Assembly (NCBI GenBank): GCA_038884715.1
Contig: JAWABG010000001.1
Coordinates: 38,287 to 102,286, forward strand
Source of the DNA: Candidatus Woesearchaeota archaeon
Lineage (GTDB): Archaea > Nanobdellota > Nanobdellia > Woesearchaeales > UBA9642
DNA length: 64,000 nucleotides
Direction of reading: 5' to 3'
Shown in pieces: positions 8,093-24,406 of the stretch (within the stretch, counting starts at the first letter, position 1; every line of letters starts with the position of its first letter). The translations under genes were made by a program, and so were the position numbers. The notes under the pieces are model-generated. The model saw only the letters and a program-made list of their open reading frames with translations. It made no database searches and was not told the origin of the DNA.

Positions 8093-8956
8093 TTATGGTA
8101 TATAGATTGTTTTTATATACTCATTATTATTCTCATTTGATTCGCTAATTCTATATGTTGAATCCACATATCCATAATAATTATATGTTCCTGGATTAAT
8201 ATATGCATTCACAAAAGCAGTATATTCCTGGCCCGGATTCAGCATTGGTATATAACTATTAGGCAAGCTATAACTTCCTCCAGTACCATTTATGTTTACT
8301 TTCAAATAAAAATACGTGCCAGTAGTAGCATTACCTTTATTTTTTATAAGATTTGCAACAACGAGAGGTGAGTTATTTCCTGATTGATTAGTTATATAAG
8401 AAGCATTAATATAAGAAGCATTAAGTATTACTAAGTCAGGCATACTAGGCGTCTGGTTGACACACACACCATTAGCACAGCCATAAGTACAGTTCATGAC
8501 AAATTGTTGAGTTATCTGGCTACCACACGCCCCTCTTAAACAAAAATAATCAGTGAAATTACGATGTACACTGTTACCATAACAGTAATTAGGACTATAA
8601 CTATCTGTTCCACAAGCATATAACCCGTTTAGTTCTCTTGTAGAATTACAAAAATATTCATTTACTGTCTCGTTATTTTGACAATAATCGGTGTGATTAT
8701 ACCCCACACCATTATAATAACCAAATGTTGTTCCTTGAATTTCAATTCTTATGCCATTGTCGGTATCTTCACAGCTATCTGTTTGTGGTGCGATTTTAGA
8801 TGAGGTAACTGTGCCTTGGCCAGCCATTCCAATATAATTATCAGATAATGTCTTAGAAGCATTATTTACATTAATAACCATTACAACTAATCCGATTATT
8901 GCTACACACGCAACAATAGCAATTATATATAGAACTCCCATATTTTCTTTATCCAA
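8093..8956 (-). CDS. Secreted or membrane-anchored protein with a C-terminal CARDB domain. The likely start is TTG at 8954-8956 (MDKENMGVLYII...); the ORF-track start at 9004 is probably too long.
   Basis: CARDB signature at the C-terminus: NKGNATTG...LNPGQEYTAFVNAYINPGTYNYYGYVD...ISESNENNNEY (ExNExNN). The leader AAAATGATGTGAGGTGT is shared with gene 3099..6158 and places the TTG-GAT-AAA (M-D-K) start in the same position. Hydrophobic N-terminal anchor. Confidence 0.6.
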   Translation of the reverse strand: MDKENMGVLYIIAIVACVAIIGLVVMVINVNNASKTLSDNYIGMAGQGTVTSSKIAPQTDSCEDTDNGIRIEIQGTTFGYYNGVGYNHTDYCQNNETVNEYFCNSTRELNGLYACGTDSYSPNYCYGNSVHRNFTDYFCLRGACGSQITQQFVMNCTYGCANGVCVNQTPSMPDLVILNASYINASYITNQSGNNSPLVVANLIKNKGNATTGTYFYLKVNINGTGGSYSLPNSYIPMLNPGQEYTAFVNAYINPGTYNYYGYVDSTYRISESNENNNEYIKTIYIP

Positions 8957-9147
8957 CGTAACACACCTCACATCATTTTTAATATTTATTAATAATTTCA
9001 ACAAAAAAATATATTTTATTAAATTCTTAAATTACTTATTTAAAAAGTTTTTCTTTTTATATTTATTGGTATATATATTGTTAAACATTATTTGGTACAT
9101 AAATACATAACAATTAAAAAATTAATATTTAAATATTCAATAAAAAT

Positions 9148-11214
9148 TTAAGAGGAACTAAAAACAAAATAATTATTTCCGGGAACTAATTCACTGAATT
9201 TTATTTCATTGTTATTTTTATCAACTGCTATTACTGCAAAATATTTTTTTGTAACAGGAATCTGAATATAGGTAGTTTTTAGATTACTAATCGGATCATT
9301 ATATATTACATCAAGATGATAATAATTATCATTAAAATGCTCAGATACCCAAGGAATCCCAAATCGTCTAACAACGCCTCCAGACTGCATAAAATCATTC
9401 TTGTCTGTATTTACAAAATTTTGATCAGAATAATATATATTATATGCTACAACGTCTTGAGTGTTCGTAGGATTATCACTCCACTGTAATTTGTAAACAT
9501 CTGCTGAGACATTTATAACAGACAAACCAATAACAGCTAAAGGAGCTATATTATCATATAGGTTAATTGCAAATTTTATATTAACTGGTTTTAGAACAGT
9601 GTTCATATTATCATCAAGCTGAGGAATCTCATCATTTGTTTTTAGGCACAGCCTGAATTTTTGTTTTTGATAAATACACTCCTTATAATCAACACCGTTT
9701 TGGTCATAGTCTGAAAAAAACAATTTATTGTTGTTAATGTTTGGATTAATATTTTCTATTTTTGTAAAATTTTTGCTGTAATTGCTTATATAAAGAAATA
9801 TTTCCTCTTTATTTGGCGTTGATATATATGTTCTGTAAATTCTTTTATTAGGATTTATTGTGTCAAAACCATCATCACCAATAACTGATTTAATATATCC
9901 ATCGTCATCATATTTTATTGAATAAATCTCAGGAATGTTTGTAGATTGATTTATAGAAAAACTATAGTAATTTATTATTGGTTTTGTCATCTGAACCAAA
10001 ACTTTATCATCTTGGATTGAAAACTTGAATTCAAATTCTCCCTTAAGTTTCTTATTTTTTATTTCATCGTTGGAATACAAATTTGTGAGCTTGCATGCAC
10101 AATCTGTTACATTTACCTCTGAGCATTCTTGTAATCTTTCCATTGCATCATAAAAAACCTTAAAAGGACCTTCTTCACAATCATAAGTCATTTTCATATT
10201 TGGATTATTTATGTTAAAATCAGATACAGCTTTATCAAGGCAAGATTCGAGATTATCAACACAGTGCGTCTTAACATTGGACGTAAATGTTTTTATCAAC
10301 TCATAAACACTTAAATTATAGTTTACAAATACATTAAAATGAGGCATTACTGTGTATACTCCTGAAATTCCAGAGCCTTTCTTCATAGTGTCTACATAAA
10401 TACCGTTTTTTACTTCTCCTCCTGCAGCAAGGCATATTTGGTTAAAATAATTCAGAATAGTCTCAGGATAGGCAGCACCCATTCCTGCATCAATGCACTT
10501 ATTTTTACTGCCACTTTCAGGGCTTGTGTACAAGCAGCGCACATAATCTCCCCTGCATACACTGGGTGAATCAAGGTAATTCTCTCTGCAGGCTTCAATC
10601 ATCGCATCTGTTAGTGTTTTGCCTACTTGAACTTTTTCAGCAGCACTTATTGCTGTTCGTTCACCCCTATTATATGCAAATAATGCCAAAATTAAAGTAT
10701 CTTTTGGACTGAGATTTTTTTTAGAAATTGAATCAAATTTTCTCTTAAAATTATGTATGCCTGCATCAATCTGACTTGCCACTGTAACGCATGGTTGGTC
10801 TCTTGTGCAAGTATCATCTACTTGAAGAATTCCTCTATAATTAGAAATATAGCCGCACTTGCTTTCCTGCATTGCAATAGCCATTATCATTATGGGGTCA
10901 ATTCCTCTTTCAGTTATTCCATTCTGCACAGAATACTGCATAAATAAGTCTATATGATTATAACAGCCATCGATATATTGCATATTCGAACTCGCTAATC
11001 TGCTTAAGTCTGGATTATCACAATAAACCATTTGGCTTTTGTCATTATCTCCGCCAACTCCAATTACAAAACCCGAGATACTTAAGATTGGATTTAGTTC
11101 CGAAATTGAAGCATTTAAATTTTTTAATTTTAAAACTAAGAATAAAAATAAAATAAATAACAAAAATAAAGAAAAATATAAAAGGCTTTGTTTTGAAACT
11201 TTTTTATTTTTCAT
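9148..11214 (-). CDS. Secreted lytic-transglycosylase-like protein (GH23/SLT domain) with a C-terminal FN3-like region.
   Basis: All three family-1 SLT motifs appear in order: AMQESKC (catalytic E-S), GILQV (GLMQ-like) and FAYNRG (AYNxG). N-terminal signal/anchor: MKNKKVSKQSLLYFSLFLLFILFLFLVL. C-terminal YKLQWSDNPTNTQDVVAYNIYYSD is FN3-like. Confidence 0.6.
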   Translation of the reverse strand: MKNKKVSKQSLLYFSLFLLFILFLFLVLKLKNLNASISELNPILSISGFVIGVGGDNDKSQMVYCDNPDLSRLASSNMQYIDGCYNHIDLFMQYSVQNGITERGIDPIMIMAIAMQESKCGYISNYRGILQVDDTCTRDQPCVTVASQIDAGIHNFKRKFDSISKKNLSPKDTLILALFAYNRGERTAISAAEKVQVGKTLTDAMIEACRENYLDSPSVCRGDYVRCLYTSPESGSKNKCIDAGMGAAYPETILNYFNQICLAAGGEVKNGIYVDTMKKGSGISGVYTVMPHFNVFVNYNLSVYELIKTFTSNVKTHCVDNLESCLDKAVSDFNINNPNMKMTYDCEEGPFKVFYDAMERLQECSEVNVTDCACKLTNLYSNDEIKNKKLKGEFEFKFSIQDDKVLVQMTKPIINYYSFSINQSTNIPEIYSIKYDDDGYIKSVIGDDGFDTINPNKRIYRTYISTPNKEEIFLYISNYSKNFTKIENINPNINNNKLFFSDYDQNGVDYKECIYQKQKFRLCLKTNDEIPQLDDNMNTVLKPVNIKFAINLYDNIAPLAVIGLSVINVSADVYKLQWSDNPTNTQDVVAYNIYYSDQNFVNTDKNDFMQSGGVVRRFGIPWVSEHFNDNYYHLDVIYNDPISNLKTTYIQIPVTKKYFAVIAVDKNNNEIKFSELVPGNNYFVFSSS

Positions 11215-11247
11215 TTTATTATTTTTTTAATGTTTTTGTGTTATTTA

Positions 11248-12405
11248 TTATTTCTTCATTAAATATGATGTTGTACATTTTCCTGCTGCTTTTGCCATCT
11301 GTGCTCTGTCTGAGTTATATTCAAAATGCCACCATTCTCCAAAAACATTTTTACTTTCACTACCCAACCTAATCCACCCGTTCTCGCACATCAATCTCTG
11401 CAACAAATCGTGATTTTTTTGTTGTTCTTGAGAATAAAAAAACGGGTAAGGCTTATGTAGCCCGGTATCTAATTCGTGCCCGTTAAAATATATTTTTGAT
11501 ACATCGATGGCTTGTCCTTGTGCATGTCTTGCGGTTGCACATGTTGCACTTGCTGCACCAGACCCTTTTTGTTTTTTTAATTCTTCTTGTTCATGTAGAG
11601 TTCTATAGGCATCACTTATCAATAATGTATACCTCTGTTTTCTTAAATTTTCGGCAGTTGTTTTTAATCCATCGGCGGCAGATTGTGCAAGCATGCATCT
11701 AATTCCTGGTTTACAAGTAATTCCTTCAATATTGTCAATTCCAACTATCTGTTCGTTTGTGCAGCTTGAAGCAGTAATTTTCGTGTCTATTATACTGCTA
11801 GCAACACCTCCAATACTAAAGATTATAGGCTGTATTGCGAGTCCAATAACATTTAATTTTTTTGTGCCTTGCTCTTGTTTTATTATAAATTTATAATTTT
11901 CTGTAGGGATGTTCACATTTGGATACTTTGAAAGATAATTATTTAATTCGTTATTTATATACTGCTTAAAGCTCTCATCATAATCTGGAAAACAGTTATC
12001 TGCTTCATTGCTGTATAAAGGATAAATAAATTGACCGCAAGGATAATTAGGAGTCATTCCTCCTTCGTCAATTGTATTCATTAAAAAGAAATAGCCTCCT
12101 GTTTCGCCAAGGCGAGAGATTGCTTTCAAGACGGATAATTTCGCAGATTGATCAATAAATAACAATGCGTATTCTCCTTCTTGATATGTTTTAAAGATAA
12201 TATATTCCTTATCGCCGATTTTCTCACCACTATCCGCTTTAAAATTTTTGCTAAATAAAATGAATATTATTATTAGACTTGAAACAATAATAAACATAAT
12301 TCCCAAAACAAAAAGTTGTGATTTTTTATCTGTCCTTTTCATTTTAATATGGATATTACTTATTGAATGGTTTTTTCGTACAGTAAAAAAAATAGTGTTT
12401 GACAA
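11248..12405 (-). CDS. Peptidase M15 family zinc peptidase (VanY / L-Ala-D-Glu peptidase-like peptidoglycan hydrolase) with a pilin-like N-terminal anchor.
   Basis: Zn-binding motifs ARHAQGQAIDV (SxHxxGxAxD) and GEWWHFEY (ExxH). N-terminus ...KMKRTDKKSQLFVLGIMFIIVSSLIIIFILF is class III signal-peptide-like. Confidence 0.7.
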   Translation of the reverse strand: MSNTIFFTVRKNHSISNIHIKMKRTDKKSQLFVLGIMFIIVSSLIIIFILFSKNFKADSGEKIGDKEYIIFKTYQEGEYALLFIDQSAKLSVLKAISRLGETGGYFFLMNTIDEGGMTPNYPCGQFIYPLYSNEADNCFPDYDESFKQYINNELNNYLSKYPNVNIPTENYKFIIKQEQGTKKLNVIGLAIQPIIFSIGGVASSIIDTKITASSCTNEQIVGIDNIEGITCKPGIRCMLAQSAADGLKTTAENLRKQRYTLLISDAYRTLHEQEELKKQKGSGAASATCATARHAQGQAIDVSKIYFNGHELDTGLHKPYPFFYSQEQQKNHDLLQRLMCENGWIRLGSESKNVFGEWWHFEYNSDRAQMAKAAGKCTTSYLMKK

Positions 12406-12423
12406 TTTTATGATTAGTTATTT

Positions 12424-12900
12424 CTACGATGAAGATAACGCCACTTGCACTGCTTTTATCTCGCCATTTAACAGGGGAAGATAAACAATTTTGTAAGGAA
12501 GACCAAAAGGTATTTGATTGCTCGTTTTTTTCGGAAAACAAATTATCGCAAAATATTTATTTGGAGAAAGTAGTGCAGTCTGTCGTAATTCCCAATCCGA
12601 GCATTTTTCATCCATATAATACTTAATCTTGTCGTCAGGGCTGTTCATCAACTTCGGATACATACCAAGATAACTCCCGAATGATGTGTCTTCATTTACA
12701 CTATCTCTGAACAAATTTATTGTTTCTCTGTCTTGAGACAATTCTCCAAATTTTTGTTGATAATTTGTCGTTTTTTGTTTAGCACTAAGATAAAAAAGGA
12801 AAATAAGTAATACAATAATAATTATAAAAATTATGATTGAAACAACATCAATCATCACGAAATCTCCTTTTTTATTTTTTAATAATTTACTTACTTTCAT
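12424..12900 (-). CDS. Hypothetical small surface protein with a class III (pilin-like) signal peptide.
   Basis: N-terminus MKVSKLLKNKKGDFVMIDVVSIIIFIIIIVLLIFLF (KKG then a hydrophobic helix). No recognisable domain. Confidence 0.4.
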   Translation of the reverse strand: MKVSKLLKNKKGDFVMIDVVSIIIFIIIIVLLIFLFYLSAKQKTTNYQQKFGELSQDRETINLFRDSVNEDTSFGSYLGMYPKLMNSPDDKIKYYMDEKCSDWELRQTALLSPNKYFAIICFPKKTSNQIPFGLPYKIVYLPLLNGEIKAVQVALSSS

Positions 12901-12993
12901 TTTTATTTTTTATATTTTTTAATTATTATTTATTTTAATTAAATGTTATATTAATTATATTTTTAAATATTTATCAATTATATTTTTTTATGA

Positions 12994-13569
12994 TTATTTT
13001 TCACTAATTAATTTTATATTAAGTATTCCTGAATTAAAAATATTATTCTCAATATATAATACAGAAACATTCTTTTCTATAACGTTAAAATCATTTTTGA
13101 ATACATTTGATTGAACTTCAATACTCTTATAATAATACTGATTATTGTATATAGGACCGAATTGTTTATTATTCGTAGAATCGGTTAATTCTAACTTTAC
13201 AGCCATAACTCTTACATTTCTAAAATTTAATGATTTTTCAATATTACTTCTAGTAAACTTTTTTATGTCAATAATACCAGGATATACCCTTCCAGTATTT
13301 TCATCAACGTAATTTATAATGTTAGGGGAATAATATATCTTGTTAAATATAACATCCATATGTAATGATGAAACATCTAGATTATTTACTACAAAAAAAA
13401 CAATTATCCAAATAAAAATTCCGATTGCAAAAATCAAGAAAAATATCCTAAATATATTTAGTATTGGCTCTTTTAGTGCTGCCCGCTTATTTATTTTTTT
13501 ATTTATTTTATTTTTTATTATTCTACTAATCTTTATTCTATTTTTATTTTCAAATATTTGAAATTTCAT
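12994..13569 (-). CDS. Hypothetical membrane-anchored protein.
   Basis: Single TM (ILNIFRIFFLIFAIGIFIWIIVFFVV) after a basic N-terminus. A 4-nt gap to the upstream gene suggests an operon. Confidence 0.35.
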   Translation of the reverse strand: MKFQIFENKNRIKISRIIKNKINKKINKRAALKEPILNIFRIFFLIFAIGIFIWIIVFFVVNNLDVSSLHMDVIFNKIYYSPNIINYVDENTGRVYPGIIDIKKFTRSNIEKSLNFRNVRVMAVKLELTDSTNNKQFGPIYNNQYYYKSIEVQSNVFKNDFNVIEKNVSVLYIENNIFNSGILNIKLISEK

Positions 13570-13573: not shown

Positions 13574-14410
13574 TTATTTGTAATTATTTTTTATTACTTC
13601 TACGAGTTTTCTTACAAAATCATTCTTGTTTTCGAATATGCCAGAAGGAAAATTAACTGGAATTAAAATCATAATTGCTGTTTTTTCGGAGCTTATCTGA
13701 CTAAATTCTTGGATGTTTTGCTCTGCAAATTGGGTGTTAAAAAAATTATTAAAGGTGTATTTTAATTCACAAGCAAGGTTTTTACTCATAAAGGATCCTG
13801 GCGGATAAAAAATACTTAGTTTCTCGTCGGGAGAATTCTTAACATAAATTATTAAATTCGGGTTGTTTATGTCTTTAACAAACCCTGTGTTTTCTAAATT
13901 ATTTTCAATACTGTTTGATAAATAAAATAGATTTTGATCAAGTGTAATTATTGAAAAATTTGTTTCTGATACAGATTTTAATGATTTATCACATAATGGT
14001 TGTTGAATTCCTATTCCTAAAACACCGCTCGCATATTCATACCTAAACGCTTTGCTACTGGTTTCTGATTCAATTATTTTAATATTTATATCATTAGCAA
14101 AAGGATAATTTGCATAAACACCTCTTTCTTGCTTTGGAAAATCATAAACAAAAATTTCAGATGACTTTAATGAAACCAAAAAATCTTTTTCGCGTCTGGG
14201 AGAATAATAGACAAAGCCAATTTTTCCTGGTGAAGCTTCAAGGGAATCAATAACCAATGCATTATCCCTGGCAAAATAATTTCTCCAATAGATTGTATTA
14301 TCTGATTTTTGATAAACAAATGCAAAAACAAGCAAGCCTATCCCCATAAGTATCGCGAATTGATTAAAGATATTCCATAATTTTTCTTCATCGCCCCTTT
14401 TATTAAACAT
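13574..14410 (-). CDS. Hypothetical surface protein with a class III-like signal peptide.
   Basis: N-terminus MFNKRGDEEKLWNIFNQFAILMGIGLLVFAFVY (KRGD motif, as in two neighbouring genes). Confidence 0.4.
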   Translation of the reverse strand: MFNKRGDEEKLWNIFNQFAILMGIGLLVFAFVYQKSDNTIYWRNYFARDNALVIDSLEASPGKIGFVYYSPRREKDFLVSLKSSEIFVYDFPKQERGVYANYPFANDINIKIIESETSSKAFRYEYASGVLGIGIQQPLCDKSLKSVSETNFSIITLDQNLFYLSNSIENNLENTGFVKDINNPNLIIYVKNSPDEKLSIFYPPGSFMSKNLACELKYTFNNFFNTQFAEQNIQEFSQISSEKTAIMILIPVNFPSGIFENKNDFVRKLVEVIKNNYK

Positions 14411-14485: not shown

Positions 14486-15766
14486 CTATTTACACACTCC
14501 TATTGGCAGGATTTTATTTACTGTTTTATCCCGGCCGTCAGGATTATATCTCTGACTCTCTCCAGAATATAGCTCCATAGAATAAACACAATTTTTTCCA
14601 TTACAATTTTTTCCGAGCTGAGCTAAGGATGAACCTGTACTTTTTCTTAAAGTATATTCTCCACAATCCTTAGTTAAATCAATCTCAACAATCTTATAAC
14701 TAACAGTGTTTTCTAATAATGGTCCACCAAAGACATCATCTCCTATCTGCCTAATTCTAGTAAATGTTTTTCCTTCCTCTAAATCATAAAGTGTGTTATA
14801 GAGCGGAAAGTTGTCTCCAACACCCAAACATTTACCTGTATAAACACCTATGTTTGAATATGTTAAAGGATCATCGGGATGAGAAGAGTATCTAATAACT
14901 TTTTCTGCAAACATACACACTTGATCATTATTGCATTTTGTTCCAAGACAACCAATCATATAAACTGGCAAATCTTCAACTGCAATACCCCCATATCCTG
15001 AAAATGAAATATCATACCCCAATATTCCACAAGGGACTTCTGTGTTTGAACAAGGTCTTTGCTGAGCCAAAATAGTGTCAAGATCGCTAAACTTATTTAT
15101 TGGCTGAGCATAAATATTATAACTATTTCCAATCTTTACCTTAATAAAAAAAACATTGTTAAAATCAGTTGATTTATCAGTTGTTCCTAATTGAAAGAAA
15201 TTTTTAAAAGTCTCTTTATTTAATATAAACACAGGATTTTGAGATTTTGTATATTCAACTTTCATCTTTCCGTCCTTTTCTACAAGGTTTGTTGATACAT
15301 AAACCAAGCCCATGAAATCTACACTCTCAAAAGTTCCCTTATTTAGTGATTTGCAGAACAAGACCTTTGTTTTTTTGTACAAACAAAGACAAGGATTATC
15401 ATATTCTGTATTACTCTCTCCACACTTTTCTGGTTTTTTAAATATATTTTTTCCAATAATTATTTCATCTGATTGATCACCAAAACCTAATATAGAATAA
15501 TCATCGGGAAGATATATTGTTGAGTAAGCATAGTCATTATCTGTTGAATGTAATAATAATCCTTCAAGAATTAATGATGCGGTATTAAAATTCTGTATTA
15601 CTGCTTTATTTAAATCTTTGTTTCCCGAAAATAAATTATATATTAATGGAACAAAAATTGTTAGCAGAATTATAACAACAAGTATTGCAAATATTGCCTC
15701 CACGAGCTGTCCTGTTGTTAAATCTCCCTTTTTTGCTCTTGCAATTTTTTTCCCAATCATAAGCAT
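14486..15766 (-). CDS. Hypothetical Cys-containing surface protein with a pilin-like N-terminus.
   Basis: N-terminus ...ARAKKGDLTTGQLVEAIFAILVVIILLTIFVPLIY. The KKGD motif plus E and a hydrophobic helix resembles prepilin leaders. Confidence 0.4.
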   Translation of the reverse strand: MLMIGKKIARAKKGDLTTGQLVEAIFAILVVIILLTIFVPLIYNLFSGNKDLNKAVIQNFNTASLILEGLLLHSTDNDYAYSTIYLPDDYSILGFGDQSDEIIIGKNIFKKPEKCGESNTEYDNPCLCLYKKTKVLFCKSLNKGTFESVDFMGLVYVSTNLVEKDGKMKVEYTKSQNPVFILNKETFKNFFQLGTTDKSTDFNNVFFIKVKIGNSYNIYAQPINKFSDLDTILAQQRPCSNTEVPCGILGYDISFSGYGGIAVEDLPVYMIGCLGTKCNNDQVCMFAEKVIRYSSHPDDPLTYSNIGVYTGKCLGVGDNFPLYNTLYDLEEGKTFTRIRQIGDDVFGGPLLENTVSYKIVEIDLTKDCGEYTLRKSTGSSLAQLGKNCNGKNCVYSMELYSGESQRYNPDGRDKTVNKILPIGVCK

Positions 15767-15829: not shown

Positions 15830-16081
15830 TTAGCTAAATGCTCGCATACAACATACTTTGTTTTCACCGCAGTTTTTTTCATCAAGTGGCTGGTCTCCTG
15901 GCTGGCAATTACTTGTACTGCTGCAATAAAGAGCTTGGCCTCCTATTTCTCCTTCACATTTATTTACGTGCATTGAAGGTTTGATGATTAAAAAATATAT
16001 TAATGCAGCTGCGACAATTATTACTAGAACTACAATTATAATTTCTACAATATGACCTCCCGCTTGTGATTTATTATTCAT
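15830..16081 (-). CDS. Mini-pilin-like protein (83 aa) with a C-terminal six-cysteine knot; paralog 3 of 3.
   Basis: MNNKSQAGGHIVEIIIVVLVIIVAAALIYFLII, then C-x10-C-x5-C-x11-C-x5-CC (CEGEIGGQALYCSSTSNCQPGDQPLDEKNCGENKVCC). Confidence 0.5.
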   Translation of the reverse strand: MNNKSQAGGHIVEIIIVVLVIIVAAALIYFLIIKPSMHVNKCEGEIGGQALYCSSTSNCQPGDQPLDEKNCGENKVCCMRAFS

Positions 16082-16335: not shown

Positions 16336-17631
16336 TTATGTCGCGGCAATTCTTTTTCTTTCTGTTTTTCCTTGCCCCAAAACATTCTCCACATATAAAC
16401 AAATATTATTATTTTCATCATTTGCGGGACGAGTAATTGTTAATTCAGATGTTGCTGTATACTTGCCCCTATTATCTTTTGTTATTGGAGGACAATCGAT
16501 AGTATCATTGGTAATAATATAATACCATTTTTGGGTATTACAAGCATAGTCTGGGCTTTTTGCTTCACATATTAGTTTTATTTCATATTCTCCTGAACTC
16601 TTTTTAAAAATCTCGATTCGAGGAGTGGGATATGTGTCAACAAAAAATATTGGAATTGAAATACTTGCAGCCCAATAATTTGGGTCTATAGTACAGGCAT
16701 TTCCTTTTTGACAATCTTCTTTGTAAACAATTGACTGTAAGCTTAGTTCTTTATTTATCTCTTCATACTTTGGAGTATAAGTAAAAATTAATTTTGTATT
16801 TGTGCATTCAAGATTCTCTGTTCCAACTAAATTACCTTCTTGATTAAGCCATCTTTTATTTACTACATCATAAATATAACCAACACACCTTCTCTTTTTA
16901 TCAGAGTTTATATAGAACTCAATGTTTAATGTCTGACCAATGATTGCATTAAGTGATTGACTATAACCAATATCTTTGTTATTTACTTTTATAGCAATTG
17001 TTGCTCTTGCTTTATCGCTTGAGCGAGAATTTGAAGGGTTGTTTCTATTGTTTGATAGTTCGTTAACATCATTCGGATAATCATATTTTGGAATAATAAC
17101 AATACTTATTGTTTCATCATTATTCTTTATTACAACTACCTTAATATCAGTAACTGAATCATCATTTATATCAGTTTCTAATTCTCCTTTTTTATTAATA
17201 AGAGGTATTGTGTACTGTTTTGGCTCTGTTTGAATTGTTATCTTTACATAATTATCAGTCATTTCATCAATGCTTATAGAATGAGTTACTCCATTTATTA
17301 CAAAAGTTTTTGATTCCCCGACATGCAATGAAAAACTTTGCTCTTCATTTTTAATGCGCCTGCAGCAATATTGCCCAAGAATTTCTTTGTTAGTATTATC
17401 CTTGCATAAAATAATTCCTGATTTAGTTATCATGTATGTATCATCACATTTTTCATAAGTACAATAACCTCCAAAGGTCTCACAAGAATTTATTTTTGTT
17501 GATGTTTTCCAATAATAAAGGTAAATAATGAGCGAAGAAATAACAATAAGTATTAAAACAATTATTAATACCTTTACAAGTCCAACTCCGCTTGTATCAT
17601 CTGCACGTTTGTTAAATTTAAAGTTAATCAT
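16336..17631 (-). CDS. Surface protein (431 aa): pilin-like anchor, then the same 6-Cys module, then a large extracellular domain.
   Basis: MINFKFNKRADDTSGVGLVKVLIIVLILIVISSLIIYLYYW, then CETFGGYCTYEKCDDTYMITKSGIILCKDNTNKEILGQYCC, which has the same C...C...C...C...CC framework as the mini-pilins. Confidence 0.45.
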   Translation of the reverse strand: MINFKFNKRADDTSGVGLVKVLIIVLILIVISSLIIYLYYWKTSTKINSCETFGGYCTYEKCDDTYMITKSGIILCKDNTNKEILGQYCCRRIKNEEQSFSLHVGESKTFVINGVTHSISIDEMTDNYVKITIQTEPKQYTIPLINKKGELETDINDDSVTDIKVVVIKNNDETISIVIIPKYDYPNDVNELSNNRNNPSNSRSSDKARATIAIKVNNKDIGYSQSLNAIIGQTLNIEFYINSDKKRRCVGYIYDVVNKRWLNQEGNLVGTENLECTNTKLIFTYTPKYEEINKELSLQSIVYKEDCQKGNACTIDPNYWAASISIPIFFVDTYPTPRIEIFKKSSGEYEIKLICEAKSPDYACNTQKWYYIITNDTIDCPPITKDNRGKYTATSELTITRPANDENNNICLYVENVLGQGKTERKRIAAT

Positions 17632-17695: not shown

Positions 17696-17941
17696 CTAAC
17701 TGGTTAATGGACAACAAACAAATCCTTTAGCACATCCTTTTTCTCCTGAATTGCCTAATGGATTATTACAAGAACCAATCGGCAGACATTGTCCATTATA
17801 ATTATCTACACATTCTAGTTTTCCCCTGAATAATCCTAACCTGCTCACTAATAAATATGCTATGATTGCTAAAACAATTAATACAATTACTGCAATGATT
17901 ATAACATTCATTGACATTTCAATTCCTTTTTTGTTTTTCAT
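17696..17941 (-). CDS. Mini-pilin-like protein (81 aa) with a C-terminal six-cysteine knot; paralog 2.
   Basis: MKNKKGIEMSMNVIIIAVIVLIVLAIIAYLLV (KKG then I-E, class III leader), then CVDNYNGQCLPIGSCNNPLGNSGEKGCAKGFVCC. GAGGT SD lies upstream. Confidence 0.55.
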   Translation of the reverse strand: MKNKKGIEMSMNVIIIAVIVLIVLAIIAYLLVSRLGLFRGKLECVDNYNGQCLPIGSCNNPLGNSGEKGCAKGFVCCPLTS

Positions 17942-17986: not shown

Positions 17987-18229
17987 CTATACCACTTTGC
18001 AGCATATTTTATTAGCATCACAGTCATTAAATGTTCCTCTAACCTGTTCATTTGTACATTCTTCCGGTGTCTTACATAACCCCCCATTCGCAACGCAGCT
18101 CTTCGTTGTTCCTTGATTCACATTTGCACCTGCTCTTAATACAAGAACGGCTAAAATTACTAGAACAATAAGTGCTATCGCCGCAATTATAATAACATTC
18201 ATTGATAATTCAGCACCTTTTTTTTCCAT
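17987..18229 (-). CDS. Mini-pilin-like protein (80 aa) with a C-terminal six-cysteine knot; paralog 1.
   Basis: MEKKGAELSMNVIIIAAIALIVLVILAVLVL is nearly identical to the 17696 leader. It is followed by CVANGGLCKTPEECTNEQVRGTFNDCDANKICC (C-x5-C-x5-C-x10-C-x5-CC). GAGGTGA SD lies upstream. Confidence 0.55.
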   Translation of the reverse strand: MEKKGAELSMNVIIIAAIALIVLVILAVLVLRAGANVNQGTTKSCVANGGLCKTPEECTNEQVRGTFNDCDANKICCKVV

Positions 18230-18537: not shown

Positions 18538-19053
18538 TTAATTTGTTTTCTTCTTTAAAATCAGTTTTTCAATCTTAAAAGCAGAGTTCTCAGTATAATC
18601 CTTAACTTTTTCATCAAATAGCAAAACCTTAAATTCATCTGAATCTGATGTAGAGAAGTACTTTATATCATCAGAATAAACAACACATTTATTATTAACC
18701 ATTGCAGGATCAATTCCGACACCATATATTTTAGAAAAGAGATGAATACAAGTATCGGTCCTTTTAATATTCAAAACACTGTATCTAAAATAATAATAAG
18801 CATTCTGCTCCAAAAATAATTCATATTTTCCTTTATTTTTAGTAATATTTTTCCAATTAAGATTGTTAATTTCGTCATCAGATTTTTTATATGGGCCGTT
18901 GTATTGAATAAGAACATAATCGTCTCCTTTCATATTATCATTATTAAGTAATGATTTAGATAGAGGGATTAACCATTTTATTGTTAGAATTAATGCAACT
19001 CCAATAATTAATAATCCTATAAGAAATCCTGTCATTTGTTTTGATTCGACCAT
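18538..19053 (-). CDS. Hypothetical surface protein with an N-terminal anchor.
   Basis: MVESKQMTGFLIGLLIIGVALILTIKWLI, then a soluble domain. No recognisable motif. Confidence 0.4.
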   Translation of the reverse strand: MVESKQMTGFLIGLLIIGVALILTIKWLIPLSKSLLNNDNMKGDDYVLIQYNGPYKKSDDEINNLNWKNITKNKGKYELFLEQNAYYYFRYSVLNIKRTDTCIHLFSKIYGVGIDPAMVNNKCVVYSDDIKYFSTSDSDEFKVLLFDEKVKDYTENSAFKIEKLILKKKTN

Positions 19054-19102: not shown

Positions 19103-19246
19103 TTATCCAAACAAGTCAAACATTCTTGAAATTCCACCGCTCAGTCTTCCAACAATAAATAATATTATTGCTAAAACAGCTATTGCTATCAGTATCCAGG
19201 CAAGTGGATTATCGAGCATTGATTTTTTTTGTTCAATTATTTTCAT
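19103..19246 (-). CDS. Candidate small membrane protein (47 aa). It falls below the ORF-track cutoff.
   Basis: Manual translation: MKIIEQKKSMLDNPLAWILIAIAVLAIILFIVGRLSGGISRMFDLFG*. One clear TM helix. Same strand as the island genes, 49 nt upstream of 18538..19053. Confidence 0.25.
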   Translation of the reverse strand: MKIIEQKKSMLDNPLAWILIAIAVLAIILFIVGRLSGGISRMFDLFG

Positions 19247-19582: not shown

Positions 19583-20536
19583 TCAGACTTTTTCTTTTTG
19601 TGTCGCAATATATTCACAACCAAGATCCTTAATATTTTGAGTATTATATTCAACAATAAATAATCCTGACGCCCACTCTGCATCTGTTGTCTCGAAAATA
19701 GCATCATAGGCAAGTTTTATTCCACTAATTACTACAACAGCGGCACCCCCAATTACCGCAACAGGAAGCCCGACTCCGGAAGCAACAGCAAGTAATAAAA
19801 AGCCCCCCACAACACCAGCCCCAGTTCCTGCAAGAAAAAAACCAAGCCTACTTTTATCTAAGGTGTTTGTATAAAACCTGCTTAGAGATTCTGAACCTTT
19901 AGCATAAACAAAGATAACACCATAATCGTTATTTGTATTTAATGTATCTAATTTTTTTGCTTCAACAGTAATAGGATGGTCTGCGAGATATCTTTGGGAT
20001 TGTGGAGTACTATAACCCGCAAAATAATCAGAAAATGTTATTTTTTTGTTTGGCATATTTACATTTGCCAGATATTCCGTAAATCCTTCTATTGTTTTAT
20101 TCTTTTCCTTAAATGTTATAAATGAACAGACATGACAAAATGTTCCATCCTTTTCCTTGAACATTTCTGGTTTTCCCTCAAGCCATATATTCCAGCAGCG
20201 CCTCATTTCATTTGCTATTTTTGACTTAATATTAAGCTGGGAATTATCATTAATTTTGACAATATTTGTTGGACAATTAATCTTTACAACAAAATCATTT
20301 GCAATTGCTAAATAATTATTACTCATTCCAATCAGCAATGCCTCTTTTGTAACAGCATCCTTACATCTTTGCTCTTCTTCTATAACTTTTTGCTTATCAT
20401 ATATTTTTTTAATAAAAAATCCACCAATTATAAGCATTAATACTGCAAGAATTATTATCACTATAAACATCATTCCATGACCGGAATCATCCTCTCCAGT
20501 ATCTTGAGCCTTCTTATTAAGTTTTTTGAATATCAT
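19583..20536 (-). CDS. Hypothetical membrane protein with an N-terminal TM and a C-terminal Gly/Ala-rich hydrophobic segment.
   Basis: N-terminus MIFKKLNKKAQDTGEDDSGHGMMFIVIIILAVLMLIIGGFFI. C-terminus GFFLAGTGAGVVGGFLLLAVASGVGLPVAVIGGAAVVVISG. Confidence 0.4.
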   Translation of the reverse strand: MIFKKLNKKAQDTGEDDSGHGMMFIVIIILAVLMLIIGGFFIKKIYDKQKVIEEEQRCKDAVTKEALLIGMSNNYLAIANDFVVKINCPTNIVKINDNSQLNIKSKIANEMRRCWNIWLEGKPEMFKEKDGTFCHVCSFITFKEKNKTIEGFTEYLANVNMPNKKITFSDYFAGYSTPQSQRYLADHPITVEAKKLDTLNTNNDYGVIFVYAKGSESLSRFYTNTLDKSRLGFFLAGTGAGVVGGFLLLAVASGVGLPVAVIGGAAVVVISGIKLAYDAIFETTDAEWASGLFIVEYNTQNIKDLGCEYIATQKEKV

Positions 20537-20567
20537 TTTAAATTTTTTGGATATTTCTCTTTTTAAT

Positions 20568-21497
20568 TTATATTAATTTTGAGCATTGATTTTTCAATTC
20601 AGATGTAGGAATAATATAAGCAAAATAAGAACTCAGATGTTTTTCAGCACCCTCTCTTACAAAGTAAATAACATAGGTTTGCATTTTATCAAATTCAATA
20701 TTTCTGTACTGTGCCATGCTTGGATGCTTTGCCCTATTATTAACGATTTCATCCCAGAGCAATCCAATACTAGGTTGTACAACAAAAAATGATATGGCAA
20801 CAGGATCGCTGGCGGGTATATTTAAATAATTTGAATCCATATAATTCTCAAAACAGCTTGGATTATTTGAATAGAAAAAACAAATGGTGTCATCTGACCC
20901 GGGGTATTTGTTTGTAATATATTCATAATATGTAATATCACTATTCGCCATCTTATTTTCTTTCAAATAATTATAGAATCCTGAAAATGAATTCTGAGAT
21001 ACATCTTTATTAAAAGAAATTTGGTCGCAGATAAAGCAAAGCTTCTCATTTTTGCCTAAATCATAATATTGGTCATTCAAAATTTCTAGTTTTCCTTCAT
21101 AGAACTGATACCAGCATCTCTTCAGTTCCTCAGCTAAAAAGGCATTTACGTGCTCGTCTGTTAAAGAAGAGAACGAACGTATTTGCGCCCCCCTATAATA
21201 AAATGAAACCTTATCTCCGTTTACTTCAACTTTTGTATTATAGAATTTAACATTCATCGTATTGCATTCAATTGTAAATGGAGAATCAACTTTCAATGGT
21301 CCTAACTTAAATTTGGTAACTGCTTGAGTATATACACTTGTCTTACATACCTCTCTGTTCTTATAACTATTAAGATTGGTAGTACATTTATTAAGCAATA
21401 AAAGCATTACTGCAAGACCTACTATTATTATAATCAGCGAAACAGTAAACATACTTATTCCTTTTTTGTTTTTTTTCAATAGATTTTCAGATTTCAT
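20568..21497 (-). CDS. Hypothetical surface protein with a class III (pilin-like) signal peptide.
   Basis: MKSENLLKKNKKGISMFTVSLIIIIVGLAVMLLLL. Its start codon overlaps the stop of the upstream micro-ORF (ATGA). Confidence 0.45.
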   Translation of the reverse strand: MKSENLLKKNKKGISMFTVSLIIIIVGLAVMLLLLNKCTTNLNSYKNREVCKTSVYTQAVTKFKLGPLKVDSPFTIECNTMNVKFYNTKVEVNGDKVSFYYRGAQIRSFSSLTDEHVNAFLAEELKRCWYQFYEGKLEILNDQYYDLGKNEKLCFICDQISFNKDVSQNSFSGFYNYLKENKMANSDITYYEYITNKYPGSDDTICFFYSNNPSCFENYMDSNYLNIPASDPVAISFFVVQPSIGLLWDEIVNNRAKHPSMAQYRNIEFDKMQTYVIYFVREGAEKHLSSYFAYIIPTSELKNQCSKLI

Positions 21498-21604
21498 TTA
21501 AGAAAACTCCTCACTATTCTTAAACAAATAAATATGAATATGATTGCTCCAAGTATTGCAAGTATTATTTTTATTGTTTTTTCTGTCAAGGCTTTTTTAT
21601 TCAT
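21494..21604 (-). CDS. Candidate 36-aa micro-pilin-like ORF, translationally coupled to the downstream gene through an ATGA overlap.
   Basis: Manual translation: MNKKALTEKTIKIILAILGAIIFIFICLRIVRSFLK*. Its stop TGA overlaps the ATG of 20568..21497. Its last codons contain GTGAGGAG, which serves as an SD for the next gene. Confidence 0.3.
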   Translation of the reverse strand: MNKKALTEKTIKIILAILGAIIFIFICLRIVRSFLK

Positions 21605-21726
21605 CTTTGTATTAGTTATTTTTTTATATTTAATGTTTGTATTAGTTTCTTATTTTTAATAACTTATTTTAACAATACTTAAAATATATGTTATATATTA
21701 TTAAATTATAGTTTATTTAAAACTTC

Positions 21727-22218
21727 TTATTTGCATATTGCCAGTTCAATCCTCGTACTAATCCCCCCACCTATAGGAATTGGCTGGTTCGAAGTAATTC
21801 CCTGAATACTTGTTCTATTGCATTTATATGAATATGTATAATGTGGGTTTTCAATATTAATCCTATATTTGGTATTCCAAACTAAAAAAGTTTTATTTAG
21901 GATTAGTTCAATGGTTTTATTAATTTGTTGACATGAAGTAAAACCATTACAAATAATTCTTTTTTCCTTATTGCAGTCTACAATAAATTCCTGTATGGAA
22001 TAAGGAATACCTCCACAATCTATCTGTGTATCAAGCAACGCAAGTAAATAAGATTGAGCAAGTTTATCATCAATGTAATTTTTTGGTGTATGTTTAGGTA
22101 TGTGACTTGAGAGTGTAAAAAAGAGATAAGTTCCTATGGCTACAAGCACAACAATTATTGCTAAACCCATAATTTCAATTTGGGATTTTTTGAATTTTTT
22201 TTTAGGATTTCTTTTCAT
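21727..22218 (-). CDS. Hypothetical pilin-like protein with a Cys-containing C-terminal domain.
   Basis: MKRNPKKKFKKSQIEIMGLAIIVVLVAIGTYLFF (KKSQ then IEIMGL, class III leader). Confidence 0.45.
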   Translation of the reverse strand: MKRNPKKKFKKSQIEIMGLAIIVVLVAIGTYLFFTLSSHIPKHTPKNYIDDKLAQSYLLALLDTQIDCGGIPYSIQEFIVDCNKEKRIICNGFTSCQQINKTIELILNKTFLVWNTKYRINIENPHYTYSYKCNRTSIQGITSNQPIPIGGGISTRIELAICK

Positions 22219-22233
22219 ATTAAGTTTAATTAT

Positions 22234-22698
22234 TTAGGCATATCTCTCAACTTTTAATATTGCAAAGCCTCTTGTATTAGTAATGGGATTGTAGAGGTTT
22301 ATTGGTATAAACACTGGATTTTTTAAGACATATTCCTCGGGAATATTTTCATATAAAACAATTTCTTCATTTTCAAAAAACGTTGATGAGTTAGGCAAAA
22401 CTTGTATTATAGATATGTACGCATTACCAAAAAAAGAGGAATAAAAAAATCTTGAATCAGACGATTCCATTAAATTAATAAAGGCAATAACCTTAAGAAT
22501 ATCAATGCAACTGATTTTATTATTTGTGCAATGAATCTCTGGTAAAGAAGAAACTATATTTGCCAACTTTAGTGTGTTTATCTCGCTAGCTTGTTGAATT
22601 TCCTCATTATATTTGTTTCTGTTATACGATGAGTATATTGCAATACCAATAATTATCATTATCAAAATTATTATCACAACTCCCACTGATTCGGCCAT
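22234..22698 (-). CDS. Hypothetical membrane-anchored protein.
   Basis: MAESVGVVIIILIMIIIGIAIYSSY N-terminal TM. A 15-nt gap to the upstream gene. Confidence 0.35.
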   Translation of the reverse strand: MAESVGVVIIILIMIIIGIAIYSSYNRNKYNEEIQQASEINTLKLANIVSSLPEIHCTNNKISCIDILKVIAFINLMESSDSRFFYSSFFGNAYISIIQVLPNSSTFFENEEIVLYENIPEEYVLKNPVFIPINLYNPITNTRGFAILKVERYA

Positions 22699-22806
22699 CT
22701 GAACCTGTGATTTCTTTCTAAACTCTTGAATATTTATTCACCTCTAATATTATAACTGTTTAATTGTTATAATTAATTTTTATAATTGGTTGATTTCTGT
22801 AATGTT

Positions 22807-23835
22807 TTAGTAAACAGTAGGACAGCTTGCTCTACTCAGATCCTCGTTTTCTTTTTCGAGTCTTTGACTGCTCGAGTATATTGTAGCCGCATTACTTCTA
22901 CTTAATTCATCTGTGCTGTTTTTTATTTGATTAAAATAACTGGGAAAATTAACATAGTATTGTTGACACCTGTTGTTATTAAACTGACTCTCAATTTCGT
23001 TTGCTCTTATCAATAAAATTGTAGCAGTGAATCTTAAACGCTTTAATGCCTTTCTCATCGTACAAACATAATATTCTGTATTTTCTGAAAAAATAGCGCC
23101 ATAAATGGATTCTTTTTTTAAAAAGAATGAAGTCTTTGTTGAAAATCCATCTTTGAACTGAATCGTACCATAACTATTTAAAGGATGTTCAAAAATACTA
23201 GAATCAGGATTAATTATTACTGCAGTTGACTTACTGGGTAAAGAGTCAGGAACAGTTTTATAAAATATTAGCCTACAATTATCATAACTAGAACAAGAAA
23301 ATCCGTTTAAAGAAGAAATAAGTTTTTTCGTCTTGTTAAGTGGAATTGTATTATATAAATCAATGATTTCTGGATCATTACCAACAAAAACAAACTGTGT
23401 TCTATCATCTGCAAGCATAAGAAAAGAACCAGCGAGCATTGGAATATTCCAATTAACAGTCCAAGCATAAATATTACCTTTTAGATTGCTCTTAGAAAAA
23501 ATAATTAAGCTCTCAATTGATTTCTCATATCCTTTTATATTAATTGTCGATATATCATCTCTGTCACACGTCATTACAACAGGTGTTCCATACATCTCAA
23601 TAATCCTAAAGGTTCCTTCACTGTTAACGCTCGACTCTTGTGCTGTTCTTAGAACGTTATCAATATTATGAAGAACAGTAATATCAATCTTCTTAAGACC
23701 GGTGCTTTTAATGCTATTAATTAATACTAGAAGAAAAATAAATATTATTGCTCCTGAAATAAGAACAAATATCCAGTTAAATTGTAATTCTATCGTTCCT
23801 CTTTTTTTGATTCTTTTAATTCTCTTTGCAAGCAT
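22807..23835 (-). CDS. Hypothetical surface protein with a class III-like signal peptide.
   Basis: MLAKRIKRIKKRGTIELQFNWIFVLISGAIIFIFLLVLI (KKRG then TIEL). Confidence 0.45.
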   Translation of the reverse strand: MLAKRIKRIKKRGTIELQFNWIFVLISGAIIFIFLLVLINSIKSTGLKKIDITVLHNIDNVLRTAQESSVNSEGTFRIIEMYGTPVVMTCDRDDISTINIKGYEKSIESLIIFSKSNLKGNIYAWTVNWNIPMLAGSFLMLADDRTQFVFVGNDPEIIDLYNTIPLNKTKKLISSLNGFSCSSYDNCRLIFYKTVPDSLPSKSTAVIINPDSSIFEHPLNSYGTIQFKDGFSTKTSFFLKKESIYGAIFSENTEYYVCTMRKALKRLRFTATILLIRANEIESQFNNNRCQQYYVNFPSYFNQIKNSTDELSRSNAATIYSSSQRLEKENEDLSRASCPTVY

Positions 23836-23914
23836 AAAAATAATTCAATGTTGTGATAATATAAAGTTTTTGGAAAAAAATAAATTTAACATTTAATTAA
23901 TATTGTGAATAAAA

Positions 23915-24406
23915 TTAAGTTGTCTCGGAGACAATTGTTGTCTGACCGTTTCCAGTGAATGTCAATTTAAGACCCCTACCAACACTGATACATAAAAATC
24001 CATTATCAACTTCAAGTTTTTCAGAATACGCAAGAGGCTTTGTTTCCTTGCTTGTTACTAAAAAAATGTTCATTTGAACTCCATCTTCTACACTGTCTTT
24101 AATTATTGGATATTGATTAGGGATAATACCATTAGCACCAATTTTATTTGTACTTACAAAGCAGATTTCTTTTGAATTGCATGGCGCCTGTAAGATTTCT
24201 TTATGAACAGATCCATAATCACTATATATATCAATATATTTATTTATATTGCTAATAAATGATGTTTCTTGAATATTGCACTTTTCTATAGTTATTTTCT
24301 TAAATAGATTGGCTCCGATAAGTGCTAAAAAGCCAACAACAATAATAGCAAAAATATATATAAAAACTTGTCCTACAATTTGGGATTTCTTATAAGGTAT
24401 AATCAT
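23915..24406 (-). CDS. Hypothetical pilin-like protein; first gene of the co-directional run.
   Basis: MIIPYKKSQIVGQVFIYIFAIIVVGFLALIGANLF (KKSQ then a hydrophobic helix). Confidence 0.45.
   Translation of the reverse strand: MIIPYKKSQIVGQVFIYIFAIIVVGFLALIGANLFKKITIEKCNIQETSFISNINKYIDIYSDYGSVHKEILQAPCNSKEICFVSTNKIGANGIIPNQYPIIKDSVEDGVQMNIFLVTSKETKPLAYSEKLEVDNGFLCISVGRGLKLTFTGNGQTTIVSETT

Follow-up and report, generated by a model that had tools for sequence, protein, structure and literature searches.

Here we describe a cluster of 23 co-directional genes (G1 to G23), delimited by open reading frame (ORF) calling on the minus strand of a 64,000-nucleotide stretch of a Candidatus Woesearchaeota archaeon contig (JAWABG010000001.1; the whole stretch is referred to as the window), where it runs from position 34943 down to 8093. 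We consider it reasonably probable that the cluster encodes the structural components of a type IV filament-like surface apparatus that is specific to Woesearchaeota and aimed at bacterial walls. The evidence consists of a prepilin-type leader signature shared by most of the encoded proteins, a gene order that is maintained across the lineage, murein hydrolase domains that are exchanged on a conserved pilin-like carrier, and a family of small six-cysteine proteins resembling a major filament subunit.

Leader signature and probable processing site

Eighteen of the 23 cluster genes encode a leader of 5 to 14 amino acids (30 in G19) that ends in [KR][KR][G/A/S] and is followed by an uncharged hydrophobic stretch of 19 to 29 residues, beginning 0 to 8 residues after the site. 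The five exceptions are G12, G22 and G23, which have no recognisable site, G2, whose signal peptide is of the Sec type (VSA|S), and G3, which has a signal anchor and a C-terminal transmembrane segment. An earlier reading of this DNA, made from the sequence only, had described a near-universal short basic leader and helix, and a motif-and-helix scan bears this out for 17 of the 20 genes at 8093-24406 and, in addition, for G1. As a control, a looser rule was applied (one K/R, then G/A/S, then the helix; this also admits G2 and G3). Under this rule 19 of the 23 cluster genes were recovered, compared with 5 of 119 wrong-frame ORFs of the same region, 1 of 37 minus-strand ORFs of at least 80 amino acids outside the cluster (mostly real genes), and 7 of all 225 ORFs outside the cluster (approximately 3%). 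An origin of the motif by chance from AT-rich codon usage was considered and rejected, since wrong-frame ORFs rarely fit and orthologs in genomes of 45-47% GC keep the motif. Position for position, the site is retained by orthologs whose genomes have 25%, 30%, 38%, 45% and 47% GC.

N-termini were surveyed more widely in 849 plus-strand ORFs from 84 related loci, all starting with a helix preceded by K/R, such that K/R at position -2 is given by construction of the scan. The residue following the last K/R was G in 36%, A in 28% and S in 16% of these N-termini (80% in total, compared with 20% in the bodies of the same proteins). In 86% of them position -3 is K/R, and 49% have Gln at +1. In separate family alignments of G4, G6 and G7, the +1 Gln is invariant or nearly so (nearly invariant in alignment A7, invariant in A9), and in the G7 alignment (A8) Q+1, E+3 and G+6 are all invariant. 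The +1 residue is not Gln everywhere, being Ala in G13 and Thr in G5.

For a prepilin to be processed, position -1 must be occupied by G/A/S; in archaea the charge at -2 is critical, and the site lies ahead of the H-domain. Substrates of the peptidase EppA have a conserved +1 Gln, with experimentally mapped sites at KG|Q and RA|Q (PMC4371748). The cluster proteins show G/A/S at -1, a charged -2 residue, a short leader, and a site before an H-domain of approximately 20 residues, as expected for class III signal peptides. Of the features of EppA substrates, the Gln at +1 is present, and Glu is not enriched at +5. The archaeal class III (prepilin) leader pattern proposed in the sequence-only reading therefore fits the published criteria and is conserved across the 84 loci. 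Two of its details are better revised: the frequent +1 Gln points to an EppA-like peptidase instead of the PibD/FlaK-type processing that had been suggested, and a cut at KKS|Q, which places Gln at +1, is more likely than one at KKSQ|. Since the signature is kept across orthologs and across 84 loci, it appears to be the processing site that is under selection and not a generic positive-inside anchor. Prepilin-type processing of the leaders is accordingly a likely prediction on sequence grounds, because a generic anchor would not select G/A/S and Gln across some 20 unrelated families.

Extent of the cluster and conservation of gene order

A co-directional island of about 20 genes had been proposed at 8093-24406. 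With two corrections (the start of G6 and the addition of G11) exactly 20 genes lie there, and the co-directional run is real, whereas the proposed bounds are not, the true extent being 8093 to 34943. The larger block includes 32103..34943 (G1), for which the same leader had correctly been noted (MQKRG|QFTIF). The term island is itself misleading, given that the base composition of the block matches that of the rest of the window and that the cluster is a lineage-wide syntenic locus. Proteins of more than 900 amino acids had been placed within 8093-24406; all three lie outside it, and of these only G1 has the leader. Among the short intergenic gaps listed, those of 4, 15, 31, 33 and 45 nt are correct, and the one of 18 nt holds only if G21 is given a TTG start. 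Six intergenic gaps of 206-336 nt occur within the cluster, and several transcription units are for this reason likely.

Both corrections concern genes with the leader. The first ATG of G6 (22234..22731, minus; 165 amino acids) yields only a protein starting MAESVG..., and the in-frame codons upstream of it read ...EFRKKSQVQ. An ATT codon at 22731 lies 7 nt after a Shine-Dalgarno-like site, AGAGGTGA (region 22699-22745, minus), and orthologs of G6 read RRA|QIQSVE and KKS|QIEMGE. The leader of G6 (KKS|QVQMAES) would be lost from the first ATG. Because of the Shine-Dalgarno-like site and the retention of the leader in orthologs, the non-canonical ATT at 22731 is the likely start. G11 (19103..19246, minus; 47 amino acids) is an extra gene inside an apparent 530-nt intergenic gap and reads MKIIEQKKS|MLDNPLAW..., its KKS|MLDNP site being followed by one helix. 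A 47-amino-acid gene in locus L001 is alike in size, position and leader.

To determine the distribution of the cluster, one genome per GTDB species was scanned for the G5 motif [ES][LI]QFNWIF. Relatives of G5 were detected in at least 95 species representatives, and 80 loci were kept. The records bearing the cluster are almost all titled Woesearchaeota, Nanoarchaeota or Nanoarchaeia, or have placeholder labels. G5 itself is 100% identical to NCBI QXG00_00320. A word-indexed search returned few homologs of G5, yet their contigs share gene order. The order is kept in L001, L003, L004 and L005 (45%, 25%, 38% and 47% GC, respectively), with orthology confirmed by BLASTP: giant genes are followed by G4, G5, G6 and G7, by tiny and medium-sized genes, by two or three genes of approximately 85 amino acids, and by further medium-sized genes. 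Hydrolase genes come last in the recurring order of giants, G4-G7, small pilins and hydrolases. The core genes G3-G4-G5-G6-G7 are each found in 56-82 of 82 loci at fixed relative positions; ortholog counts are 68 for G3, 63 for G4, 56 for G6 and 64 for G7, with G2 in 46 and a G1-like gene upstream of G5 in 25. An RPA-like single-stranded-DNA-binding gene (6787-7914, minus) directly follows the end of the cluster at G23 and also adjoins it in L025 (20644-20984), L042 (20322-21071) and L048 (20083-21086). Since this neighbour is shared by the window and several distant genomes, the chromosomal position of the cluster is fixed. The cluster is a vertically inherited feature of the lineage and not an acquired island or provirus.

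Two sets of records stand apart by their labels. L051 (JAFCCF010000001.1), filed under Candidatus Aminicenantes (a bacterium), and dozens of loci filed as 'uncultured Methanosarcinales archaeon' carry a Woesearchaeota-type cluster; these labels probably represent mis-binning or placeholder taxonomy.

Murein hydrolases on a pilin-like carrier

G21 (11248..12342, minus; 364 amino acids; KKS|QLFVLG) combines a pilin-like N-terminal module of approximately 200 residues with a VanY/Peptidase_M15 domain. Residues 200-343 score above the Pfam gathering cut-offs for both Peptidase_M15 (28.7 bits against 27) and VanY (28.2 bits against 25), and contain the metal-binding and catalytic motifs H-x6-D (HAQGQAID) and E-x-x-H (EWWH). 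Single-sequence searches of the PDB with G21 (phmmer) and with G22 returned nothing useful. The N-module, comprising leader, helix and conserved domain, matches proteins that occupy the equivalent place of the cluster in at least 20 other loci, and is present in 20 of the 47 loci that extend far enough. Among 21 N-module proteins the C-terminal domain is VanY/M15 in 10, SLT in 3, Amidase_2 in 2, and M23, NlpC/P60 and M15_3 in 1 each; several others end at the locus boundary, and one of the Amidase_2 proteins also has SLT. The catalytic domain starts at residue 200-250 in the seven N-module proteins with coordinates. A bifunctional protein in L020 (19289-21001) bears Amidase_2 (206-359) and SLT (421-509) on one pilin-like N-module. 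The L005 cluster also has an Amidase_3 protein.

The adjacent G22 (9148..11214, minus; 688 amino acids) has an N-terminal helix without a class III site and a probable SLT/lysozyme-like domain. Its residues from about 100 to 195 contain the motifs QES, GILQ and AYNRG, corresponding to ES, GLMQ and AYNxG of SLT domains, and the AYNRG motif can be aligned with an authentic SLT domain of L050. Residues from about 260 to 600 form a second module, which has homologs in the C-terminal regions of other hydrolases of the cluster (L005 13492-15783, L016 15363-17138, L042 19194-19979). This module sits C-terminal to varied catalytic domains and, in some loci, stands alone in the last gene before the RPA-like gene.

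Given that murein-cleaving chemistries repeatedly replace each other on a fixed carrier, the domain composition argues that wall cutting is the selected function of the G21 position. Murein synthesis is not known in archaea, and the predicted target is for that reason most simply a bacterial wall. Murein-degrading enzymes of DPANN archaea have likewise been read as aimed at bacterial hosts or prey (PMC8204110, PMC9723730, PMC12352652).

Small six-cysteine proteins

G13, G14, G16 and the N-terminus of G15 share the pattern KKG-[AIV]-E-[LM]-S-M-N-V-I-I-I-A... together with six cysteines. G13 (17987..18229, minus; 80 amino acids; KKG|AELSMNVIIIAAIAL) is the candidate major pilin and is preceded by a 308-nt gap and a GAGGTGA site. 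G14 (17696..17941, minus; 81 amino acids; KKG|IEMSMNVIIIAVIVL) is its tandem paralog, the leader and helix coding parts of the two duplicates being 76% identical at the nucleotide level. G15 (16336..17631, minus; 431 amino acids; KRA|DDTSG) has a helix, the same six-Cys domain and an extension of approximately 330 residues, and the pilin-like G16 (15830..16081, minus; 83 amino acids; NKS|QAGGH) is the third of the small six-Cys proteins. Of the 84 loci, 32 had recognisable small six-Cys genes, and longer, G15-like proteins beginning with the same Cys motif occurred in 9 loci. The G13 family yielded 49 homologs in a word-indexed search (alignment A2), and 4155 cluster representatives among 1.84 billion proteins, of which 1487 matched at E<=1e-10; the best 150 of the 4155 are all 75-120 amino acids long. 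No Pfam model covers the small six-Cys family. Because the 80-amino-acid protein is conserved, duplicated, equipped with a strong Shine-Dalgarno-like site and a member of a family of thousands, it looks, judging by these genomic features, like a polymerising major subunit. The N-terminal part of the small-pilin profile matched, besides generic transmembrane helices, two archaeal type IV pilins, weakly (E of approximately 0.45).

The cysteines are spaced C-x6-C-x5-C-x11-C-x5-CC with a conserved GG-x-C. For comparison, the beta-defensin fold is characterised by six Cys spaced approximately C-x6-C-x4-C-x9-C-x6-CC, by a Gly preceding Cys2, by a sheet of three strands and by disulfides C1-C5/C2-C4/C3-C6. 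In profile searches of the PDB the Cys domain matched beta-defensin-fold proteins only (best E 0.007-0.012), namely tick carboxypeptidase inhibitor, crotamine, beta-defensins, big defensin, platypus defensin-like peptides and helianthamide, with the six Cys and the Gly before Cys2 in register. An AlphaFold2 model of G13 consists of a helix (5-43) and three strands, with a predicted local distance difference test (pLDDT) score of 76; its best Foldseek matches in the PDB were defensin-like peptide 1 and a SCRiP toxin, at TM-scores of 0.52-0.54 that are not significant. The resemblance to beta-defensins is consistent across methods and statistically weak, and convergence of the Cys framework is a possible source of it. 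Trans-defensins have been described from animals only (PMC11561630).

Core proteins, giants and probable membrane-resident members

Four adjacent core genes encode pilin-like proteins: G4 (23915..24406, minus; 163 amino acids; KKS|QIVGQ), a candidate minor pilin; G5 (22807..23835, minus; 342 amino acids; KRG|TIELQFNWIF), the marker of the cluster; G6; and G7 (21727..22218, minus; 163 amino acids; KKS|QIEIMG). The N-termini of the G6 and G7 families are homologous (hhalign profile-profile comparison, 92%). A word-indexed search with G4 found 2 homologs only, and its top PDB profile match, the type IV pilin PilE1, is not significant (E 0.33). The AlphaFold2 model of G5 (pLDDT 83) shows an N-terminal helix of 48 residues together with a beta domain and a helical bundle.

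Upstream of the core lie three giant genes. G1 (32103..34943, minus; 946 amino acids) encodes a large Cys-rich extracellular protein without a Pfam match and, from its sequence features, is a candidate adhesin with a pilin-like N-terminus. G2 (28215..31808, minus; 1197 amino acids) is a Cys-rich giant surface protein with a weak CarboxypepD_reg match; its counterparts in L001 and L005 carry CarboxypepD_reg, and the latter also Big_13. G3 (24743..28135, minus; 1130 amino acids) has an N-terminal signal anchor, a large ectodomain with a TSP3 repeat, a second transmembrane segment near residue 798 and, after it, a K/E-rich cytoplasmic tail of approximately 310 residues. The C-terminal transmembrane segment was seen in all 15 long G3 orthologs inspected, 14 of which have a tail of 134-308 residues after it; orthologs with this segment and a K/E-rich tail include those of L025, L028, L068 and L069. 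Relatives of G1-G3 reach 3346 amino acids and contain CarboxypepD_reg, Big_13 and TSP3 repeats, and the whole group looks like adhesins by domain content.

G10 (19583..20536, minus; 317 amino acids; KKA|QDTGEDD) has two more, C-terminal transmembrane segments at residues ~231 and ~255, and approximately half of its family has 1-2 such extra segments. From this topology G10 is probably a membrane-resident component. G9 (20568..21497, minus; 309 amino acids; KKG|ISMF) is a paralog of G10 (BLASTP 1e-7), with orthologs in L001 and a presence in 18 loci. The sequence-only reading took the gene products to be pilin-like substrates. Their leaders agree with this, but not all of them can be filament subunits: a filament composed of all members is ruled out by the Sec-type signal of G2 and the extra transmembrane segments of G3 and G10.

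Remaining cluster genes

Between the core and the small six-Cys genes, G8 (21494..21604, minus) encodes 36 amino acids, with KKA|LTEK followed by one helix; tiny one-helix genes occupy its place in L001 (37 amino acids, no basic leader) and L003 (34 amino acids, KKA|Q). G12 (18538..19053, minus; 171 amino acids) has an N-terminal helix without a recognisable [KR][GAS] site, and the genes at its place read KRG|T in L001 and KKG|Q in L005. Downstream of G16 follow G17 (14486..15766, minus; 426 amino acids; KKG|DLTTG), with a pilin-like N-terminus and no known Pfam domain, G18 (13574..14410, minus; 278 amino acids; KRG|DEEK), G19 (12994..13569, minus; 191 amino acids), whose basic leader ends KRA|ALKEP, and G20 (12424..12900, minus; 158 amino acids; KKG|DFVM). 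G18 has orthologs in L001 and L003 and BLAST matches in 9 loci, and the alignment of its orthologs was too weak as a search probe; an ortholog of G19 is present in L001. G23 (8093..8941, minus; 282 amino acids), the last gene before the RPA-like gene, encodes an N-terminal helix, a Cys-rich region and a CARDB domain (Pfam, 7e-10).

Proposed mechanism and alternative explanations

In the filament-like apparatus that we propose, the precursors would first be inserted by Sec and then be cut before the helix by a prepilin peptidase of the EppA/FlaK type whose gene would lie elsewhere. Polymerisation of G13, G14 and G16 into the shaft would be the task of an ATPase and platform protein of the FlaI/FlaJ type, likewise encoded elsewhere. 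In analogy to the four bacterial minor pilins and PilY1, the core proteins G4-G7 may prime the filament or form its cap, and the giants G1-G3 could provide adhesion or anchorage. Together with G22, the modular hydrolase G21 would be displayed on the filament or beside it, to attach to the murein of a bacterial partner or prey and open it locally. Both G3 and G10 probably remain in the membrane as base components.

Several observations weigh against this proposal. With approximately 18 pilin-like proteins in one system, the cluster is far above characterised pili. Glu is found at +2, +3 or +6 and not at the classical +5, with enrichment at +2 (12%) and +3 (21%). No cluster protein matches the Pfam Pilin_N or Class_IIIsignal models or the NCBIfam archaeal pilin N-terminal models at E<=0.1, the G4, G6 and G7 family profiles gave no significant pilin matches against PDB sequences, and the G5 model has no fold match in the PDB to solved pilins. 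The extra transmembrane segments of G3 and G10 are incompatible with extraction into a filament, and the SLT match of G22 is below the Pfam threshold (15.8 versus 21.3 bits; E 0.011). Finally, the 64-kb window contains no T2SSE-type ATPase, T2SSF-type platform protein or A24 peptidase, and an ATPase, platform protein or prepilin peptidase was not found within approximately 10 kb of G5 in the 84 loci.

The earlier statement that the window lacks assembly machinery is thus correct, and extends to every related locus examined. A motif scan of 85 loci detected no such machinery, and two Pfam censuses of flanking proteins (132 downstream, 100 upstream) gave, among the top 25 families listed, housekeeping families and hydrolases only. 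The genes flaI, flaJ and flaK have been reported in Woesearchaeota genomes, in most metagenome-assembled genomes of one study (PMC5994134, PMC11606122).

A bolder version of the proposal holds that the apparatus is a bacteriolytic type IV pilus, in which a beta-defensin-like shaft subunit (the first prokaryotic trans-defensin-type fold) and, as accessory subunits, pilin-anchored murein hydrolases, exchanged from species to species to suit differing bacterial walls, would serve parasitism or predation of the archaeon on bacteria. We put this forward tentatively, as a minority possibility. Prepilin-type processing might also take place without a long pilus being formed, the products making up a short pseudopilus or a bindosome-like, membrane-anchored complex that displays or pushes out hydrolases and adhesins, comparable to a type II secretion system or to the bindosome of Sulfolobus. 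The class III signature is also compatible with such a complex, as are the many varied medium-sized 'pilins', the membrane-resident G3 and G10 and the lack of a dedicated ATPase nearby, and leader-bearing enzymes have a parallel in the sugar-binding proteins of the Sulfolobus bindosome (10.64898/2026.04.22.720090). We nonetheless hold it to be unlikely, given the 80-amino-acid subunit, whose conservation, duplication, strong Shine-Dalgarno-like site and family of thousands are like those of a polymerising major subunit. A simpler explanation dispenses with processing altogether: the N-termini would be ordinary uncleaved N-in signal anchors of a membrane-tethered envelope or host-contact layer, whose hydrolases would obtain nutrients by scavenging fragments of murein. 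The length of the helices suffices for transmembrane anchors, no pilin model matches and no machinery is near, but this explanation accounts neither for the preference for G/A/S at -1, K/R at -3 and Gln at +1 across some 20 unrelated families and 84 genomes nor for the near-invariant +1 Gln of G4, G6 and G7, and is quite improbable.

The remaining two explanations differ in the role given to the hydrolases. Bacterial loci for type IV pili, type II secretion systems and type IV secretion systems often include dedicated lytic transglycosylases, and the conserved position of the hydrolases at the end of the cluster would agree with a similar cutting of the cell's own wall for passage of the apparatus. 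The targets of VanY/M15, M23, NlpC/P60 and amidase enzymes, however, are D-amino-acid stem peptides and MurNAc linkages, which are absent from pseudomurein. Murein production is not known in archaea, DPANN enzymes of this kind have been interpreted in the literature as directed against bacteria, and we regard this role as very unlikely. An integrated virus or mobile island, with the hydrolases as endolysins, would fit the many small membrane proteins, the giants, the lysin-type domains and the absence of annotation. Its probability is close to negligible: the composition is like that of the surroundings, the same RPA-like neighbour recurs in several genomes, G5 occurs in 95 species, the cluster proteins have no PHROG matches, no relatives of the cluster were found among the 2.9 million viral contigs of IMG/VR, and neither flanking repeats nor a tRNA were found at the cluster by repeat search and tRNA scan. 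A prophage or mobile island is effectively refuted by this composition, by the distribution of G5 and by the lack of PHROG and viral-contig relatives.

Comparison with known systems

The proposed filament-like apparatus can be compared with several characterised systems. Epd pili of Methanococcus maripaludis (system 1) are similar in their K[G/A]|Q leaders and in having several minor pilins and a small major pilin without a large globular domain, and their pilin genes can stand apart from the ATPase genes; archaeal type IV filament system 1 has been reported in methanogens and a few DPANN (PMC4371748; 10.64898/2026.04.22.720090). In contrast to Epd pili, the cluster has approximately 18 pilin-like genes together, Glu at positions other than +5, hydrolase-bearing members and a Cys-rich major subunit, and no relationship at the sequence level is detectable between its families and either Epd pilins or Pfam Class_IIIsignal. 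Modular type IV pilins, exemplified by PilB and PilC of Streptococcus sanguinis and known from more than 1,200 bacterial examples, join a pilin module to a grafted functional module, peptidases included (PMC8179133), whereas the carrier here is an archaeal, unannotated module of approximately 200 residues on which five or more murein hydrolase families are swapped at one position. The four adjacent, universally conserved pilin-like genes G4-G7 beside the giants recall the type IVa pilus tip complex (FimU/PilV/W/X and PilY1); no sequence or fold similarity was detected, and the analogy is one of gene order and number only. The Tad-like Kil apparatus of Myxococcus xanthus is a type IV filament machine directed against neighbouring bacteria that kills prey on contact (PMC8460266). 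Kil is bacterial and has its own ATPase and secretin, and the suggested analogy is functional only.

Runs of unannotated signal-peptide genes in DPANN have been read as diverse pilins and termed 'dark matter' islands (Makarova, Wolf, Koonin 2019, Fig. 2A; PMC6393860). Those islands were recognised via an adjacent ATPase (called FliI there) and TadC, which were not found near the present cluster in any locus examined, and hydrolase and defensin-like components are not mentioned in PMC6393860. Murein lytic transglycosylases are known to be encoded by Woese- and Pacearchaeota, and a recognised Sec/Tat signal was reported for only 32% of archaeal peptidoglycan hydrolases, both among PMC8204110, PMC9723730 and PMC12352652, which also cover archaeal peptidoglycan hydrolases that kill bacteria; no connection of the enzymes with pilin-type leaders or with a gene cluster of pilus-like kind was drawn there. 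In archaea, class III leaders can occur on enzymes and binding proteins (10.64898/2026.04.22.720090). We found no published description of a lineage-wide cluster of 20-plus genes with an EppA-like K-K-[GAS]|Q signature, of a carrier with swappable hydrolases, or of the six-Cys small-pilin family.

Genomic setting

The window has a GC content of approximately 30%, with nearly all genes on the minus strand and an archaeal ribosomal-protein/SecY operon at 35-52 kb. Rfam and tRNA scans of the window gave no matches, and a repeat search of it revealed the G13/G14 duplication and otherwise AT-rich noise. One protein of the window, looked up by exact sequence, had no match on record. Dockerin-rich surface proteins adjoin the cluster on the side of the RPA-like gene: a large secreted protein of 1019 amino acids with seven dockerin and eight DUF4215 repeats (3099-6158, minus), and a large secreted protein that runs off the window start (1-2735, minus) and has a Sec-type leader and a dockerin-like C-terminus. 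A fused PriS-PriL, a 494-amino-acid protein with primase small- and large-subunit domains, is encoded at 52460-53944 (minus).

Conclusions

With thousands of members but no database model as yet, the small-pilin family is a large unannotated family that could now be named. If its resemblance to defensins represents real homology, the fold would no longer be confined to animals. A class III leader would explain part of the archaeal peptidoglycan hydrolases for which a Sec/Tat signal is not recognised, and the cytoplasmic tail of G3 could link the surface apparatus to the cytoplasm. Woesearchaeota are among the most widespread DPANN archaea, and the chief clue to a life on bacteria for some of them has been the murein hydrolases in their genomes. 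By placing these hydrolases on a conserved pilin-type carrier, the cluster turns that clue into a concrete, testable cellular machine with candidate parts, namely a shaft (G13/G14), a tip or priming set (G4-G7), adhesins (G1-G3) and wall-cutting modules (G21/G22). Together they suggest a hair-like organelle for gripping and breaching bacteria.

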